Assembly: GCF_013315695.1 (NCBI RefSeq)
Contig: NZ_CP054353.1
Source of the DNA: Escherichia coli
GTDB lineage: Bacteria; Pseudomonadota; Gammaproteobacteria; Enterobacterales; Enterobacteriaceae
Reading direction: 5' to 3' (one strand)
Length of the DNA: 64,000 bases
Every line of letters begins with the position of its first letter. The stretch's first letter is position 1. This document shows positions 2,693 through 50,705 of the stretch, one piece after another. Below the pieces are notes generated by a model that searched no databases, was not told where the DNA came from, and saw only the letters and a program-made list of their open reading frames with translations. A program made the translations under genes and the position numbers.

Positions 2693-3176
2693 GGAGATAC
2701 TCCGCAGTTATGGCTGATACCGGACAACTGGCTGCACATGCTCCACATCCGTTGCAAAGTTGGCTATTAAGTTGCGGCTGGTAGATCCCGGAGAGCGTCG
2801 GGCGAAAGATAATTGCCATTGGCTCACAGCTATCCTGACAGCGGCGGCATTCAACTGTTTGATACGCCAGGCACACCTCCCCGATGGTGAACAGCAAATC
2901 CCAGGCCCTGGTGTGGCGCGGAGAAAATAGCGATTCGGGGCAAGCCTGCGCGCAGGCGTAACAGAAGCTGCACTCGTTATTTTTGAAATTAACGCTCGGA
3001 TAGCCGCCAGCGCCGCGTTGCAGGATGTTGTTTTCACAAGCATTAATACAGGCGTCGCAGCGGGTGCAATGGGTCAGAAAATGAGATTCATCACCGGACC
3101 AGGGCGGACGGATACCGTTACTGGCTTTGCGCCAGCGACCAGTGAGTATGCCCCGACGGGATGCATCAATCTTCAC
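2682..3176 (-). CDS. napF: ferredoxin-type protein NapF (multiple 4Fe-4S CxxCxxCxxxCP motifs)
   Basis: 164-aa ORF with repeated Cys clusters; first gene of nap operon. Confidence 0.9.
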   Translation of the reverse strand: MKIDASRRGILTGRWRKASNGIRPPWSGDESHFLTHCTRCDACINACENNILQRGAGGYPSVNFKNNECSFCYACAQACPESLFSPRHTRAWDLLFTIGEVCLAYQTVECRRCQDSCEPMAIIFRPTLSGIYQPQLNSQLCNGCGACAASCPVSAITAEYLHAH

Positions 3177-3583: not shown

Positions 3584-4072
3584 ATGAAGACCATTCTACC
3601 TGCAGTATTGTTTGCCGCTTTCGCCACCACTTCCGCCTGGGCGGCAGAAAGCGTCCAGCCGCTGGAAAAAATCGCACCTTATCCACAAGCTGAAAAAGGC
3701 ATGAAGCGTCAGGTGATTCAGTTAACTCCGCAAGAAGATGAATCTACCCTGAAAGTAGAACTGTTAATCGGTCAGACGCTGGAAGTCGATTGCAATTTGC
3801 ATCGTCTCGGCGGGAAGCTGGAAAGCAAAACGCTGGAAGGCTGGGGCTATGATTATTATGTCTTTGATAAAGTTAGCTCGCCGGTTTCCACGATGATGGC
3901 CTGCCCGGATGGCAAGAAAGAGAAGAAATTTGTCACCGCGTATCTGGGCGATGCCGGAATGCTGCGTTATAACAGCAAGCTGCCGATCGTGGTGTATACG
4001 CCAGACAATGTGGATGTGAAGTACCGCATCTGGAAGGCGGAAGAGAAAATTGACAACGCGGTTGTTCGCTAA
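3584..4072 (+). CDS. eco: ecotin, periplasmic serine protease inhibitor
   Basis: ORF 3563..4072; start placed at internal ATG 3584 ([10 protein letters not shown]... signal peptide) to give the 162-aa ecotin I recall. Confidence 0.9.
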
Positions 4073-4089
4073 ACTACTGTGAAGTGCTG

Positions 4090-4216
4090 CAACCCGTAGG
4101 CCGAATAAGGCGGTTACGCTGCATCCGACATCTAACGCCCGAGCCGGTTGCCTGATGCGACGCTGACGCGTCTTATCAGCATACGCCACATCCGGCAAAC
4201 CATGCCGGATGTGGCA
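4090..4216. repeat. REP/BIME cluster (GCCGGATG / CTTATC-type palindromic units) between convergent eco and mqo
   Basis: Three imperfect palindromic units resembling the REP consensus read in sequence. Confidence 0.7.
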
Positions 4217-43826: not shown

Positions 43827-43839
43827 GGTTGTTGTTTGG

Positions 43840-43955
43840 ATTCATCCGGCAACCGAGCCAAGCCTGATGCGGCGCTTGCCGCGTCTTATCAGGCCTACAA
43901 ATGCTCCCCGTAGGCCAGATAAGGCGTTTACGCCGCATCCGGCAACAGTGCCGGT
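43840..43955. repeat. REP/BIME cluster between convergent ubiG and yfaL
   Basis: Several GCCGGATGCGGCG / CTTATCAGGCCTAC-type units. Confidence 0.7.
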
Positions 43956-43965
43956 CAGACAGCGA

Positions 43966-46900
43966 TTACCATTTCACTGTCATCGACAAAAACCCTGCCG
44001 TCTGGGCAAAATCATCACTCCCTTTCTGCCACGCCACGCTACCACGCAGCGAAACTCGCTGACTGATATTGCCCGTTATTCCCACTTTTATTTCACCCCG
44101 TTGCTTCGCCGCATCGTCACTGATAGTGCTGCCATCTTCTTCAATTCCCGTCGAATGGGGATCGTGATAATAATTCAGATCTAACGTTGGCGTGACACCA
44201 ACAGCAGTACGCCATTCGCTGTGTAAACCCAGCCGCGTTTGAATATCATCACCCTGCGATTGTGACACGCGCGCATGGTTAGCGGCGGTAAAATCATCCT
44301 GCTGCACGCCCTGATAAATCACCTGCGTCTGCGGTTCAATCACCACACCATGCCCCGGTAACCACTGATAACCGGCTTCCAGCGAGGCGATAATCCCCGA
44401 CGAGTGGTAATGATCCACGCCATCGTCTTGTTCGGAAACATCATTGTTAAACCACACATATTGCAGCCAGCTATCCAACCAGGCCCCCTGCTTCTGATTA
44501 CCGTGCTGATACCAGCTTGAGGTCAGCCCAACGGCATAACCGTGGTTCTGGTTATCGGCGCGAGTTCCGGTCATATTCGAGCGGCTGTCGCCCTGGTTAT
44601 CGCTGTAGCCACCAACAATCCCAAGCATCCACTCGCCATCATCACCCCAGTGCCCGCTAAACAGGTTGCCGCTAAGCTGCACCGTAGAAGTGTCTTCATG
44701 CTGAGCCAACTGCCCTACCGCCGTGTAATGATAACGCCCGCCGATAACGCGTAAATTCAGCGTCTGACCATCGCCACCAGCGTGATCGCGTCGCTCCATC
44801 ACAAATGCCTGATTTGCCGCCCGCAGGTTATTAAAATATCCACCAACTTTGGCATTCAACACCGGCTGGTAGGCAGGCGTAGGTTCCGGGTCGGGGGTTG
44901 GGTCGGGATCCGGCGTGGGATCAGGATCTGGAGTCGGGTCCGGATCGGGCGGCGGCGTCGGATTGACTTCTTGCGATCGCAGATACCAGTCGTTGTTATC
45001 TTCCACCAGCGTATAGTCATACGCCCCCATATTGACGTAGCCGCTGCCCGCCAGACTGAACTGCGCATTGTTTTGAAATTGCGTTGGATCGGCTGCGAAA
45101 TCAACCACTTTAATGCCTGTAGATGTCGGCTCACCAATACCCGTAATGGGATTAATTACCACGGTCGTGTTGCCAGCAGTATTACCGTTCAACACCAGTT
45201 GGTCGCTTGCCGAGTCATCGCCGTTTAATTCGCTGTCGAGAAACAACGTACCGCCACCGGTGTAATCACCGTTTACCGTGAGCGTGTCGCCAGCGACGCC
45301 ATTTTGCAGACTGACAGCACCGGAAGTATTAGTTAGATCACCATTGACCGTCACGTCTGAAAGATAAGTCAGGCTGTCAGTTTCAAGGTTGGTATTAAGC
45401 TCGCCTGTCAGCGTCACACCATCGGTGGCATTCACCAACGTACCGTCGCCGCTAAACAGCGAGGCATCCAGCGCCTGGTTCGTATCCTGCTGCGTCAATC
45501 GCAACACAGTACCATCGGTTATGTCGATATCGCCGCCAGAGGTGGCATCGATTGAACGAATATCCTGATTTTGCCCGGTTTCAAAAACACCGTCTTCCCC
45601 CACCCACAGTGAAGAAACATAAGGAATAATATTCTCCGCTTCACCTTTTAGCGTTCCGTCCTCCACACGTACCGCAGACGTCGCAGTGCCGCTGGCGGTC
45701 AACTCAAGCGTCCCGCCGCCACTTTTAGTCAACGTGCTTACGCTATCCAGTTGTTGCCCGGTACTATCCGCCATCAACCCGCCCCATTGCGTATCTACAC
45801 CATCCTCAACGTGTATTTCGCCATCAGCGCGCATTTCAATATTCCTGCCCTGACCTGTTGTAGCCGAGCGAATGTCAACATCAGTCGTCACATCCATTTC
45901 ACTGTGTTGTTGGGGATCTGTGAAGATCACTGAACGGTTGTAACTTGTGTCCCCCAATTGCGAATTATCGCTGACTTCAAGCGTACCGGAGGCGATTTGC
46001 GTATTACCGAGATAACCGTTGTTATTCGCCAGCGTTACGCGCTGATCCCCCGCATTAATGACGACATAAACGCCATTCTGGCTGGCATCACTGCCGCCAA
46101 TATGTAAATCATCGCCACTGCTGATATCAACGACATCATTACTACCAATCACTGTCCCCCCGCTGCCGCTGATTTGCAGACCGTCATTGTATGAGCTATC
46201 GCCATCCCAGGTGGTGAAATCAGAGAGATCCAATACTCCGCTATTTAGCACGATCGATTGCGGATCGCTCTGCATTGCCCGTAAATCGGCCTGATTCCCC
46301 GCTAGCGACAATACGGCGTTATCTTCCACCACAATATCGCCGGTTAATGCCATCGACTGCGCCCCTGTCAGGAGATAGCTGCCATCTTGCGCTACCGTCA
46401 ACTGTCCTTCACCCTGAATCGAGCCGGAAAAACCGCCCTGGTTTACTGTAACATTGCCGCCTGCGTCGATATTCAAAATGCCATTAGCAAAACCGGTTAA
46501 TGAGTGCACAAACGTTTGTTGTGTATTGCCAACATTCAGTTCTGCCTGATACTCAGAATGAACAGTGCTGCCGACCATCAAACCAAAGCAATCCTGCGGA
46601 TCGCTCTGACAGTGCGTGTCGCCGACATTCATTAACTCATCGCTGCGCCCCAACGTCACCTCGCCATTCTGGATACTCATCTCGCCGGTAAACGCATTAT
46701 TGTCGGCATTGAGGACTAACTCTCCCGCTCCCTCTTTCACGATGACTCCCGTTCCGGCAAGAGAATCAATCGCGCCATCGTTGCTGGTATTGCCTATTAC
46801 CAGCGTTTTATCGGCGGCAATATTAAATTCAGCCACACTATGACCGATATACATAAAGCCCCCCGCCGCTGCCGTCGCCGAATGGTCATATCCCGAGGCG

Positions 46901-47724
46901 CTGTTATTTTCATCAATCATCACACCATTGTTTTGGTCATAATTATCATCAACAGAAATATCAATAAGATACGGGGATGTGGTGCTGCTGGTATAAATTG
47001 CTCCGCCATAACCTTCTGCATAGTTATTGGTAAAGGAGGTATTATTAATTATCGTTTTTCCTGAAAGATGTGTGTTATCCGTACTATTATCCGTAACATC
47101 AATGGCACCGCCGTCCCCATCACTATAGCTGGTTGATGTATATGCCTGATTATTATCAAAAATGACATCACTTAAATAAATATCATTATTGATAGAATAA
47201 ATAGCGCCACCTTTACCATCATTGGCGATATTATTCGCAAATATTGCATTAGTGATATTTAAATCCATATCACCGGCATCGTTTGTTCCCGCAGAATAGA
47301 TTGCTCCGCCATAGCCTCCTGCAACGTTACTGTCGAAAATAACATTCGCAAGATTTATCGTTGAGTTTTCTTTAGCAAAGATAGCTCCGCCATTATTATA
47401 TTCGCCACTAATCGAGTTATTAGCAAACAGGGTCATCCCTGTTTCATTTTGTGGTGATATCGTAAATTCAGCACTTTGCTGCAAAAATACGGCGCCACCG
47501 CTGGCATTATTGGCCATACCCGAAAAAATCACCCATTGCCCATCGGCGATGCTCCAGTCCTGCGTAATGCCTGAAAGGCTTTGCCTGCTGGCCTGACAAC
47601 TCGCTTTGATATCATATCCCTGGCATGAATCCAAAACCTCCGCGACACTGTTAACAGAGAAAAGAGATGCAATCATTGACGGGAGTAAAGATAAATACTC
47701 CTTGCGTAGAAAAATAATCCGCAT
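43966..47724 (-). CDS. yfaL: AIDA-like autotransporter adhesin YfaL (EhaC) with passenger beta-helix, Pro/Thr/Asp-rich linker and C-terminal beta-barrel
   Basis: 1252-aa ORF; signal peptide; linker PTPPPDPDPTPDPDPTPDPDPTPDPEPTP; C-terminal barrel ending in aromatic residue (KW). Confidence 0.85.
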   Translation of the reverse strand: MRIIFLRKEYLSLLPSMIASLFSVNSVAEVLDSCQGYDIKASCQASRQSLSGITQDWSIADGQWVIFSGMANNASGGAVFLQQSAEFTISPQNETGMTLFANNSISGEYNNGGAIFAKENSTINLANVIFDSNVAGGYGGAIYSAGTNDAGDMDLNITNAIFANNIANDGKGGAIYSINNDIYLSDVIFDNNQAYTSTSYSDGDGGAIDVTDNSTDNTHLSGKTIINNTSFTNNYAEGYGGAIYTSSTTSPYLIDISVDDNYDQNNGVMIDENNSASGYDHSATAAAGGFMYIGHSVAEFNIAADKTLVIGNTSNDGAIDSLAGTGVIVKEGAGELVLNADNNAFTGEMSIQNGEVTLGRSDELMNVGDTHCQSDPQDCFGLMVGSTVHSEYQAELNVGNTQQTFVHSLTGFANGILNIDAGGNVTVNQGGFSGSIQGEGQLTVAQDGSYLLTGAQSMALTGDIVVEDNAVLSLAGNQADLRAMQSDPQSIVLNSGVLDLSDFTTWDGDSSYNDGLQISGSGGTVIGSNDVVDISSGDDLHIGGSDASQNGVYVVINAGDQRVTLANNNGYLGNTQIASGTLEVSDNSQLGDTSYNRSVIFTDPQQHSEMDVTTDVDIRSATTGQGRNIEMRADGEIHVEDGVDTQWGGLMADSTGQQLDSVSTLTKSGGGTLELTASGTATSAVRVEDGTLKGEAENIIPYVSSLWVGEDGVFETGQNQDIRSIDATSGGDIDITDGTVLRLTQQDTNQALDASLFSGDGTLVNATDGVTLTGELNTNLETDSLTYLSDVTVNGDLTNTSGAVSLQNGVAGDTLTVNGDYTGGGTLFLDSELNGDDSASDQLVLNGNTAGNTTVVINPITGIGEPTSTGIKVVDFAADPTQFQNNAQFSLAGSGYVNMGAYDYTLVEDNNDWYLRSQEVNPTPPPDPDPTPDPDPTPDPDPTPDPEPTPAYQPVLNAKVGGYFNNLRAANQAFVMERRDHAGGDGQTLNLRVIGGRYHYTAVGQLAQHEDTSTVQLSGNLFSGHWGDDGEWMLGIVGGYSDNQGDSRSNMTGTRADNQNHGYAVGLTSSWYQHGNQKQGAWLDSWLQYVWFNNDVSEQDDGVDHYHSSGIIASLEAGYQWLPGHGVVIEPQTQVIYQGVQQDDFTAANHARVSQSQGDDIQTRLGLHSEWRTAVGVTPTLDLNYYHDPHSTGIEEDGSTISDDAAKQRGEIKVGITGNISQRVSLRGSVAWQKGSDDFAQTAGFLSMTVKW

Positions 47725-48257
47725 ATTAATCTGACCATCATGTTCTATAAGACGGCATATTTAATCGCATTATACGATATGGGTTATTTTTCTTTTGTAA
47801 ATTGTTCAACCCGGTGCAATGGCTATTTTGTTATTATTTCATGAATAATATCAGTGCGTCATAATTCAAGTTAATCACCTTAAGGGATATCAGTTATGTT
47901 TAAACTGAATTAAAGTAATGAATAATTTTCTTATAATATAAGGTAAATTAACAAAATGGCTTCGCATTTAACAACAACCGAAGAGAAAACAACCATTTCG
48001 ACATCAACAATCGCTTACATTCGCTTATATATTGACCATAACTGATACATCAGATTATGTGATGACTCGTGCTTAGATCAATTTTTGCAATCATTAGCCA
48101 AAAGATTAATAAACCATCTATATCAATTTATCTAACCTATTCTTCCGTTCAAGAAATCGCCGAACAGTTATTTTTAACAAATTTTTCTCTTCCCATTGAC
48201 TTTCCCGGACACCTTGTCTGACCTAAGGTGCGCGAAAGCCACTTTTTCCTTCCTGAG

Positions 48258-48266
48258 TTATCCACA
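48258..48266 (+). promoter_or_regulatory. DnaA box TTATCCACA in nrdA promoter region
   Basis: Exact consensus 9-mer read directly about 155 bp upstream of nrdA. Confidence 0.6.
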
Positions 48267-48295
48267 AAGTTATGCACTTGCAAGAGGGCCATTTT

Positions 48296-48345
48296 CACAC
48301 TATCTTGCAGTGAATCCCAAACATACCCCCTATATATAGTGTTCT
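48296..48345 (+). promoter_or_regulatory. two NrdR-box-like palindromes (CACACTATCTTGCAGTG and CCCTATATATAGTGTT) bracketing the nrdA core promoter
   Basis: Two partially palindromic 16-bp elements about 31 bp apart, matching the NrdR box pattern as I recall it. Confidence 0.55.
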
Positions 48346-48419
48346 AAGCAGCTTCCCTCACTACAGGTAGTCTGCATGAAACTATTGCGGAAAGAATTCC
48401 AAAAACAGGTACGACATAC

Positions 48420-50705
48420 ATGAATCAGAATCTGCTGGTGACAAAGCGCGACGGTAGCACAGAGCGCATCAATCTCGACAAAATCCATCGCGTTCTGGAT
48501 TGGGCGGCAGAAGGACTGCATAACGTTTCGATTTCCCAGGTCGAACTGCGCTCCCACATTCAGTTTTATGACGGTATCAAGACCTCTGACATCCACGAAA
48601 CCATTATCAAGGCTGCCGCAGACCTGATCTCCCGTGATGCGCCGGATTATCAGTATCTCGCCGCGCGCCTGGCGATCTTCCACCTGCGTAAAAAAGCCTA
48701 CGGCCAGTTTGAGCCGCCTGCGCTGTACGACCACGTGGTGAAAATGGTCGAGATGGGCAAATACGATAATCATCTGCTGGAAGACTACACGGAAGAAGAG
48801 TTCAAGCAGATGGACACGTTTATCGATCACGACCGTGATATGACCTTCTCTTATGCTGCCGTTAAGCAGCTGGAAGGCAAATATCTGGTGCAGAACCGTG
48901 TGACCGGCGAAATCTACGAAAGCGCCCAGTTCCTTTATATTCTGGTTGCCGCGTGCCTGTTCTCGAACTACCCGCGTGAAACGCGCCTGCAATACGTGAA
49001 GCGTTTTTACGACGCGGTTTCCACATTTAAAATTTCGCTGCCGACGCCAATCATGTCCGGCGTGCGTACCCCGACTCGTCAGTTCAGCTCCTGCGTACTG
49101 ATCGAGTGCGGCGACAGCCTGGATTCCATCAACGCCACCTCCAGCGCGATTGTTAAATACGTTTCCCAGCGTGCCGGGATCGGCATCAACGCCGGGCGTA
49201 TTCGTGCGCTGGGTAGCCCGATTCGCGGTGGCGAAGCGTTCCATACCGGTTGTATTCCGTTCTATAAGCATTTCCAGACAGCGGTGAAATCCTGCTCTCA
49301 GGGCGGTGTGCGCGGCGGTGCGGCAACACTGTTCTACCCGATGTGGCATCTGGAAGTGGAAAGCCTGCTGGTGTTGAAAAACAACCGTGGGGTTGAAGGC
49401 AACCGCGTGCGTCATATGGACTACGGGGTACAAATCAACAAACTGATGTATACCCGTCTGCTGAAAGGTGAAGATATCACCCTGTTCAGCCCGTCCGACG
49501 TACCGGGGCTGTACGACGCGTTCTTCGCCGATCAGGAAGAGTTTGAACGCCTGTACACCAAATATGAGAAAGATGACAGCATCCGCAAGCAGCGTGTGAA
49601 AGCCGTTGAGCTGTTCTCGCTGATGATGCAGGAACGTGCGTCTACCGGTCGTATCTATATTCAGAACGTAGACCACTGCAACACCCACAGCCCGTTTGAT
49701 CCGGCTATTGCACCAGTGCGCCAGTCTAACCTGTGCCTGGAAATCGCCCTACCGACCAAACCACTGAACGACGTCAACGACGAGAACGGTGAAATCGCGC
49801 TGTGTACGCTTTCTGCTTTCAACCTGGGCGCAATTAACAGCCTGGATGAACTGGAAGAGCTGGCAATTCTGGCGGTTCGCGCACTCGACGCACTGCTGGA
49901 TTATCAGGATTACCCGATCCCGGCCGCTAAACGTGGAGCGATGGGGCGTCGTACGCTGGGTATTGGTGTGATCAACTTCGCTTACTATCTGGCGAAGCAC
50001 GGTAAACGCTACTCCGACGGCAGCGCCAACAACCTGACGCATAAAACCTTCGAAGCCATTCAGTATTACCTGCTGAAAGCGTCTAATGAGCTGGCGAAAG
50101 AGCAAGGCGCGTGCCCGTGGTTTAACGAAACCACTTACGCGAAAGGGATCCTGCCGATCGATACCTATAAGAAAGATCTGGATGCCATCGCTAATGAGCC
50201 GCTGCATTACGACTGGGAAGCACTGCGTGAGTCAATCAAAACGCACGGCCTGCGTAACTCCACGCTTTCTGCTCTGATGCCGTCAGAGACCTCTTCGCAG
50301 ATCTCTAACGCCACTAACGGTATTGAACCGCCGCGTGGTTACGTCAGCATCAAAGCGTCGAAAGACGGTATTCTGCGCCAGGTGGTGCCGGACTACGAGC
50401 ATCTGCACGACGCCTATGAACTGCTGTGGGAAATGCCGGGTAACGATGGCTATCTGCAACTGGTGGGTATCATGCAGAAATTTATCGATCAGTCGATCTC
50501 TGCTAACACCAACTACGATCCGTCACGCTTCCCGTCAGGAAAAGTGCCGATGCAGCAACTGCTGAAAGACCTGCTCACCGCCTACAAATTCGGGGTTAAA
50601 ACGCTGTATTATCAGAACACCCGTGACGGTGCTGAAGACGCACAAGACGATCTGGTGCCGTCAATCCAGGACGATGGCTGCGAAAGCGGCGCATGTAAGA
50701 TCTGA
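48420..50705 (+). CDS. nrdA: class Ia ribonucleoside-diphosphate reductase alpha subunit
   Basis: 761-aa ORF with N-terminal ATP-cone and C-terminal Cys pair. Confidence 0.95.
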   Translation: MNQNLLVTKRDGSTERINLDKIHRVLDWAAEGLHNVSISQVELRSHIQFYDGIKTSDIHETIIKAAADLISRDAPDYQYLAARLAIFHLRKKAYGQFEPPALYDHVVKMVEMGKYDNHLLEDYTEEEFKQMDTFIDHDRDMTFSYAAVKQLEGKYLVQNRVTGEIYESAQFLYILVAACLFSNYPRETRLQYVKRFYDAVSTFKISLPTPIMSGVRTPTRQFSSCVLIECGDSLDSINATSSAIVKYVSQRAGIGINAGRIRALGSPIRGGEAFHTGCIPFYKHFQTAVKSCSQGGVRGGAATLFYPMWHLEVESLLVLKNNRGVEGNRVRHMDYGVQINKLMYTRLLKGEDITLFSPSDVPGLYDAFFADQEEFERLYTKYEKDDSIRKQRVKAVELFSLMMQERASTGRIYIQNVDHCNTHSPFDPAIAPVRQSNLCLEIALPTKPLNDVNDENGEIALCTLSAFNLGAINSLDELEELAILAVRALDALLDYQDYPIPAAKRGAMGRRTLGIGVINFAYYLAKHGKRYSDGSANNLTHKTFEAIQYYLLKASNELAKEQGACPWFNETTYAKGILPIDTYKKDLDAIANEPLHYDWEALRESIKTHGLRNSTLSALMPSETSSQISNATNGIEPPRGYVSIKASKDGILRQVVPDYEHLHDAYELLWEMPGNDGYLQLVGIMQKFIDQSISANTNYDPSRFPSGKVPMQQLLKDLLTAYKFGVKTLYYQNTRDGAEDAQDDLVPSIQDDGCESGACKI

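Follow-up and report, generated by a model that had tools for sequence, protein, structure and literature searches.

The divergent intergenic region between yfaL and nrdA occupies positions 47725-48419 (695 nt) of a 64-kb stretch of Escherichia coli DNA (the window), as defined by both the list of open reading frames and the RefSeq annotation. yfaL starts at 47724 on the minus strand and the ATG of nrdA is at 48420; RefSeq annotates their products as an AIDA-I-type autotransporter and the alpha subunit of class Ia ribonucleotide reductase, respectively. The same locus in K-12 is the nrdAB regulatory region (NC_000913.3 2344170-2344864), which is 96.4% identical to ours across all 695 nt. Only strain-level substitutions separate the two sequences, and the DnaA boxes, the -35 and -10 elements, NrdR boxes 0 and 1, and the HusR motifs described below are identical. 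The spacer is 100% identical in E. coli strain MS 21-1 and is present at a coverage of at least 80% in 5,422 of 5,426 complete E. coli genomes. The initial annotation, made from the sequence of the window, had described about 700 bp of AT-rich DNA in front of nrdA, and the spacer does have a GC content of 34.5%, compared to 50.8% for the window as a whole. This composition is uneven, with 29.8% GC in the distal segment (47725-48150) and 42% in the segment next to nrdA (48151-48419). Pairwise diversity within E. coli is also uneven, at 0.016 in the promoter half versus 0.058-0.092 in the distal part. Other than a pair of DnaA boxes, a repeat search of the spacer returned only short AT-rich repeats.

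The proximal ~270 nt (48151-48419) can be read as the nrdAB promoter, of the sigma-70 type, followed by the 5' UTR. At its upstream end is a control block (AAGAAATC, a T-rich stretch and ATTGAC; 48151-48200, plus strand) that our alignments find conserved across Enterobacterales. This block may correspond to the Fis, IciA or AT-rich cell-cycle element of the literature. Directly ahead of the DnaA boxes, inspection of the sequence also reveals an imperfect inverted repeat of 45 nt (48197-48241). Published work attributes the cell-cycle control of nrdAB to a cis-acting AT-rich sequence together with an inverted repeat of 45 bp that precedes the DnaA boxes, and the repeat at 48197-48241 is probably this element. 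Two motifs reported in 2026 to be bound by HusR (YnfL; PMC12844172) map to 48205-48220 (CCGGACACCTTGTCTG, inside the inverted repeat) and to 48240-48255 (CACTTTTTCCTTCCTG).

A DnaA box had been predicted upstream of nrdA, and we find it as TTATCCACA at 48258-48266 on the plus strand, 162 nt before the ATG. A repeat search combined with motif mapping adds a second, imperfect box, TTATGCACT, at 48270-48278 on the same strand. TTATCCACA occurs twice in the 64-kb window, where 0.48 occurrences are expected by chance, and is invariant in 13 Enterobacterales that share this type of promoter. Like the boxes of DnaA-regulated promoters, it is a conserved 9-mer that matches TTATNCACA and lies near a promoter. 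The core promoter consists of a -35 element, TTGCAA (48278-48283, plus strand), separated by 17 nt from a -10 element, TATCTT (48301-48306, plus strand), and places the transcription start approximately a few bases further downstream. The blocks that contain the -35 and -10 elements, CACTTGCAA and CACTATCTTG, are likewise invariant across the 13 Enterobacterales, among them E. coli, Yersinia, Serratia, Dickeya, Rahnella, Edwardsiella and Leminorella.

Using the oligonucleotides of a recent study of NrdR (Rozman Grinberg et al. 2025, PMC12176259), we mapped three NrdR boxes on the plus strand: box 0 (TCACACTATCTTGCAG, 48295-48310), box 1 (CCCCTATATATAGTGT, 48327-48342) and box 2 (TCACTACAGGTAGTCT, 48358-48373). 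Box 1 has two mismatches to the NrdR consensus and is self-complementary at 12 of its 16 positions. Box 2, which is separated from box 1 by a 15-nt linker, has 5 mismatches; box 0, with a 16-nt linker to box 1, matches poorly, having 8 mismatches in the register that was tested. The arrangement is that of an NrdR operator, which is made of two partially palindromic boxes of 16 bp that are 15-16 bp apart. According to the same study, the classical upstream box 0, which covers the nrdAB -10 element and start site, binds with a KD of >6 uM, and the functional site is formed by box 1 and the newly described downstream box 2, with a 15-nt linker and a central AG, at ~100 nM. The initial annotation had pointed to two palindromes resembling NrdR boxes in front of nrdA. 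Both are present, but the upstream one is the box 0 that is reported not to bind, and the working pair is box 1 with box 2. The published affinities refer to the K-12 sequence, in which box 2 begins with GT as opposed to TC in the window. Further downstream in the nrdA 5' UTR, our alignment shows that 13 nt (CGGAAAGAATTCC, 48388-48400, plus strand) are deleted in strains of the phylogroup B2 type. The 5' UTR does not fold unusually relative to shuffled sequences (z = +0.77). From annotation and alignment, the ribosome-binding region ACAGGTA and the nrdA start codon together span 48405-48422 on the plus strand, and ACAGGTA is invariant in 20 Enterobacteriaceae.

The positions of these motifs and their strong conservation come from our analysis, and the regulatory mechanisms are those of the literature. 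In published accounts, the nrdAB promoter is described as regulated by DnaA, Fis and IciA, and H-NS is described as acting on it (PMC3946193, PMC12176259); DnaA-ATP is reported to be a concentration-dependent switch at this promoter. Following these mechanisms, DnaA-ATP would tie transcription of nrdAB to the initiation of replication, NrdR loaded with dATP/ATP would tie it to the dNTP pool, and Fis, IciA, H-NS and HusR would provide further inputs. The suggestion that nrdAB is under both cell-cycle and dNTP-pool control is correct and agrees with the published regulators. It is already textbook knowledge, and the regulatory reading of the proximal segment re-identifies one of the best-studied promoters of E. 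coli.

The distal AT-rich segment (47725-48150) is lineage-specific and variable within E. coli. Among ~60 Enterobacterales loci that were fetched with NrdA, ubiG (plus strand) lies directly before nrdA, and no counterpart of the distal segment was found in them. A yfaL-like gene precedes nrdA only in the representatives of two Escherichia species, in a Pseudocitrobacter MAG and in RIT691 among the ~60 loci. In Citrobacter, Klebsiella and Enterobacter the distance from the ubiG stop codon to the AAGAAATC block is ~70-100 nt, and the E. coli interval between ubiG and the nrdA control block is occupied by REP-like elements, yfaL and ~425 nt of AT-rich DNA. Given that these relatives pass from ubiG to the control block over so short a distance, the AT-rich half is part of an inserted segment. 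In E. albertii, ordinary blastn picks up homology no earlier than spacer position ~353, and a more sensitive alignment gives the distal segment only ~62% identity.

A consensus scan places a promoter-like site for yfaL, TTGATC-16-CATAAT, at 48054-48081 on the minus strand. A constitutive RpoD promoter of yfaL with the same hexamers was identified by SELEX in vitro (Shimada et al. 2014, PMC3946193), and the genomic SELEX table of that paper also carries an H-NS flag on the yfaL/nrdA spacer. The -10 element of this putative promoter is not conserved in E. albertii. Transcription from 48054-48081 would, we infer, produce a leader of ~320 nt that runs antisense through the small ORF discussed below. 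In its 30% GC within a 51%-GC genome, its absence from related genera and its fast evolution, the distal segment resembles AT-rich, horizontally acquired DNA that is silenced by H-NS. It also resembles the H-NS-silenced DNA found by cryptic adhesin genes, since it adjoins the autotransporter gene yfaL/ehaC. It differs in abutting an essential and highly conserved promoter, and its putative occupancy by H-NS is taken from the table flag and from a sentence in PMC12176259. We propose that the distal ~425 nt are the fast-evolving part of an Escherichia segment made up of REP elements, yfaL and AT-rich DNA, and that they most likely contain only the yfaL promoter and leader and a silencing platform bound by H-NS.

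The distal segment contains an ORF of 29 codons on the plus strand (47956-48045; translation MASHLTTTEEKTTISTSTIAYIRLYIDHN), which the initial annotation had noted together with an AAGG upstream and had considered a possible small protein or leader peptide. The ORF, its coordinates and its translation are as described there. The AAGG is at 47940-47943, 12 nt ahead of the ATG, a distance that is too great for a good Shine-Dalgarno sequence. An ORF of this length is expected in DNA of this composition: ATG-initiated ORFs with 29 codons or more number 3 in the spacer and average 2.8 over 2000 shuffles that preserve dinucleotide content, and 96% of the shuffled spacers have at least one. A minority of E. 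coli lineages have an open frame. The window and VE-F10 carry it open with an ATG start, as does ETEC1701, where three amino acids are changed. The K-12 allele starts with ATG and has TAG at codons 3 and 10, the alleles of O26:H11 and O157:H7 start with ATG and have TAG at codon 10, that of A65EC starts with TTG and has TAG at codon 10, and those of the B2 strains uk_P46212 and EcPF7 start with TTG and have TAG at codon 3. The frame is thus broken in every classical laboratory and pathogen lineage tested, and it is open in the window strain because TCG replaces TAG at codon 3 and GAG replaces TAG at codon 10.

To count these alleles in the 5,426 complete E. coli genomes, we used five allele-specific megablast queries of 30 nt, which are effectively limited to exact matches, since a 120-nt megablast query missed the K-12-type alleles owing to its 28-mer word requirement. 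The open allele of the window type was found in 612 genomes and the open ETEC1701 type in 215. The allele with TAG at codon 10 is carried by 1,629 genomes, the K-12 type with two stops by 1,807 and the B2 type by 975. A stop within the first 10 codons therefore interrupts the ORF in 4,411 of the 5,426 genomes (81%), versus 827 (15%) in which it is open and 188 (3.5%) with unclassified alleles.

Conservation in relatives had been put forward as the test of this ORF, and the frame does not survive it. Besides the stops in K-12, O26, O157 and B2 strains, the E. albertii counterpart of the region, recovered by sensitive alignment at ~62% identity, has no ATG, and we found no counterpart ORF outside E. 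coli, including in E. albertii and L005. The base responsible for the codon-10 stop of most E. coli, a T, is also present in E. albertii; on this evidence the codon-10 stop is probably ancestral and the open frame derived. The 14 variable sites among eight E. coli alleles fall 7, 3 and 4 times on codon positions 1, 2 and 3, with no third-position or synonymous bias, and the ORF is as diverse (0.066) as the non-coding DNA on either side of it. An exact look-up of the 29-aa peptide found it absent from ~15 billion predicted proteins, and the ORF is annotated in no RefSeq record. Lastly, the ORF ends 374 nt ahead of nrdA and upstream of the nrdA promoter, and therefore cannot encode a leader peptide of nrdA.

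Taken as a whole, we are highly confident that the spacer is the control region between two divergent transcription units, the cryptic autotransporter gene yfaL and the essential ribonucleotide reductase operon nrdAB, that it is built from two parts which differ in origin and constraint, and that the small ORF is there by chance. The ORF would then be a by-product of base composition that encodes nothing functional. It resembles bacterial small proteins and leader peptides (up to ~50 codons) only in its size and its ATG start and, unlike them, has neither a conserved frame, nor a coding pattern of substitution, nor a good Shine-Dalgarno sequence, nor a position in the leader of the nrdA mRNA. 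In favor of a genuine, lineage-specific gene for a small protein or leader peptide, recently born in the ~15% of E. coli with sense codons at positions 3 and 10, one could cite the intact frames of the window, VE-F10 and ETEC1701, the 827 genomes with ten open initial codons, and the combination of an ATG, an upstream AAGG and a promoter-like site just upstream at 47899-47926. Each of these must be set against the interruption of the frame in four genomes out of five by a stop that looks ancestral, substitutions that carry no coding signature, a length that chance predicts, a 12-nt Shine-Dalgarno spacing, a position that makes the nrdA-leader role impossible, and the absence from annotations and protein sets. 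We consider such a gene extremely improbable. Another reading is that the product is not a protein but an RNA, such as a long structured yfaL leader or an antisense or small regulatory RNA. A yfaL promoter ~330 nt upstream of the start codon would give a long leader, and E. coli and E. albertii have a few conserved blocks in common, TTACATTCGCT and ATCAATTTT among them. However, the putative yfaL leader folds no better than shuffled sequences (z = -0.04), scanning 47000-49000 against Rfam with a permissive E-value yielded just two matches, both at chance level (E = 0.2-0.26, far under the gathering scores), no terminator-like site was found, and the diversity of the segment is high, so that a regulatory RNA here is also very unlikely.

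A similar question arises in the promoter half, where the sole RefSeq-annotated CDS within the spacer, ypaB (47 aa; 48149-48292, minus strand), overlaps the DnaA boxes, the -35 element and the inverted repeat on the opposite strand. Were ypaB a real protein-coding gene, it would account for part of the conservation that we assign to the nrdA promoter. RefSeq and UniProt both list it, with 156 cluster members, its ORF is open in most E. coli, and a HusR-dependent change in "ypaB" mRNA has been reported (PMC12844172). Against this, B2 strains have CTG in place of the start codon and the gene is left unannotated by RefSeq in them, and the E. albertii counterpart has an in-frame TGA at codon 18. 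In addition, the conserved bases of ypaB coincide with the DnaA boxes, the -35 element and the inverted repeat, which are conserved as far as Yersinia, where no such ORF is implied, and the apparent essentiality of ypaB in a CRISPRi screen was explained by the nrdA promoter inside it. ypaB is doubtful as a protein gene, and a coding function that contributes to the conservation seems to us unlikely; its conservation is explained most simply by that of the promoter. The cross-strain comparison that breaks the 29-codon ORF thus casts doubt on an annotated gene as well. For short ORFs in AT-rich spacers of the H-NS type, the lesson is to check a few other strains before flagging a candidate; for the 29-codon ORF, K-12 alone suffices to refute it.

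In comparing nrdA promoters among the sampled Enterobacterales loci, a set that does not include Salmonella, we observed two architectures. In the first, the DnaA box is 69-79 nt upstream of NrdR box 1 and the -35 and -10 elements are shared; this type is found in E. coli, E. albertii, the Pseudocitrobacter MAG, Yersinia, Serratia, Dickeya, Brenneria, Rahnella, Edwardsiella and Leminorella. The second has a canonical pair of NrdR boxes (ACTCACCATATAGCGT, 15 nt, CCCCTAYATATAGTAT) followed immediately in the 5' UTR by TTATCCACAGAGTTAGTCACA and a convergent TGTGGATAA, such that the DnaA boxes are downstream. Citrobacter, Klebsiella, Enterobacter, Kluyvera, Kosakonia, Cedecea and Buttiauxella have this second type, as do Pantoea, Erwinia, Mixta and Tatumella; it is the layout of all sampled Enterobacteriaceae and Erwiniaceae apart from Escherichia and the Pseudocitrobacter MAG. 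We considered whether the yfaL insertion is always paired with the upstream-DnaA promoter and rejected this, as RIT691 (L036) combines a yfaL-like gene with the downstream-DnaA type. A blastn search with the E. coli spacer finds matches in Brenneria, Dickeya, Rahnella, Serratia and Lonsdalea and none in closer genera. Going by these sequences, Escherichia is the odd one out in its family for the layout of the nrdA promoter.

We did not find a comparison of the two architectures in the NrdR papers that we consulted, PMC12176259 among them. In Salmonella, mutating either of the classical NrdR boxes is reported to derepress nrdAB, which is what the canonical-pair type of promoter would predict. 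Tentatively, the nrdA control region of Escherichia may have been swapped by recombination or horizontal transfer, perhaps together with the yfaL insertion or by way of a mobile copy like that of the P1-family phage-plasmids, although we regard this history as somewhat less probable than its contrary. If true, the swap would explain why E. coli uses boxes 1 and 2 versus the apparent use of boxes 0' and 1 by its relatives. The difference in layout matters for extrapolating the E. coli model of DnaA and NrdR control to Klebsiella, Enterobacter, Citrobacter and Salmonella.

Copies of part of the spacer are also found outside the chromosome. A search of E. coli plasmids gave 235 matches to the spacer, and the best-matching plasmid that we examined covers window positions 48163-48303; the matching plasmids are P1-like phage-plasmids. 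In P7, SJ46, P1-like plasmids and several P1 records, ~130 nt (window positions 48167-48296) are 95% identical to the chromosomal sequence, compared to ~83% for P1 itself. The two DnaA boxes and the -35 element, along with the inverted repeat, are part of the phage copy, which diverges at the -10 element and box 0 and has neither NrdR box 1 or 2 nor a downstream nrd gene. GenBank records M95666 and NC_005856 already label this copy an "nrdA-like promoter" and mark a dnaA box in it.

Comparison of the nrdA promoter and 5' UTR (window 48151-48419) with the sequence upstream of position 3001 in the Enterobacterales nrdA loci (among comparison loci L005-L084; Salmonella lay outside the sample) uncovers two layouts. 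In the first, the DnaA boxes lie upstream of NrdR box 1; this arrangement is found in Escherichia, one Pseudocitrobacter MAG, Yersinia, Serratia, Dickeya, and Edwardsiella, and the -35/-10 blocks of Escherichia and the Pseudocitrobacter MAG are identical to those of the other four genera. In the second layout, which is found in Citrobacter, Klebsiella, Enterobacter, Kluyvera, and Erwiniaceae, a canonical NrdR box pair is followed by convergent DnaA boxes within the 5' UTR. Given that Escherichia has the layout of Yersinia, Serratia, Dickeya, and Edwardsiella, unlike that of Citrobacter, Klebsiella, Enterobacter, Kluyvera, and Erwiniaceae, the sequence comparison suggests that the Escherichia nrdA promoter may have been replaced through recombination.

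The upstream part of this promoter is also found on mobile elements. A copy of approximately 130 nt (window 48163-48303; 4001-4139 and 1201-1315 in comparison sequences L002 and L091, respectively) is present at 95% identity in P7, SJ46, and pPBS4-p1, which are P1-family phages or phage-plasmids, and it spans the inverted repeat, both DnaA boxes, and the -35; in P1 itself the copy is ~83% identical. The P1-family copy was already known, as GenBank records carry it under the annotation "nrdA-like promoter". Among E. coli plasmids, we find 235 matches to the spacer. In the window, the nrdA promoter elements coincide with the annotated minus-strand gene ypaB (48149-48292), whose ORF is not conserved: B2 strains have CTG as the start, and E. 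albertii has TGA at codon 18.

The AT-rich distal part of the spacer (47725-48150) was also compared with that of L005, a genome that GTDB uses as a representative under the label "E. coli strain SCPM-O-B-8794". Its distal spacer (L005 2303-2766) is E. albertii-like, with 76% identity to E. albertii and ~62% to the window, although the protein encoded by its yfaL has 91% identity. Based on this disparity, we infer that the AT-rich spacer either evolves much faster than both flanking genes or was exchanged. In the window, yfaL (43966-47724, minus strand) is an uninterrupted ORF of 1,252 codons, and its 5' end is highly polymorphic within E. coli (diversity of 0.07). In strain MS 21-1, which has the same spacer sequence as the window, RefSeq lists yfaL as a pseudogene with an internal stop; 6 of 6,695 aligned bases differ between the two sequences. 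The ubiG-yfaL spacer is filled by REP-like palindromic elements (43827-43965; GCCGGATGCGGCG...CGCCGCATCCGGC). Other genera have no such elements between ubiG and nrdA; in the window, they delimit the yfaL insertion on one side.

The nrdA leader also varies among strains. The phylogroup-B2-type strains uk_P46212 and EcPF7, whose entire spacer is only ~88-90% identical to that of the window, are missing 13 nt of the 5' UTR (CGGAAAGAATTCC, window 48388-48400). Separately, NrdR box 2 begins with TC (48358-48359) in the window strain, B2 strains, and E. albertii and with GT in K-12; published NrdR binding measurements used the K-12 sequence, with box 2 beginning GT.
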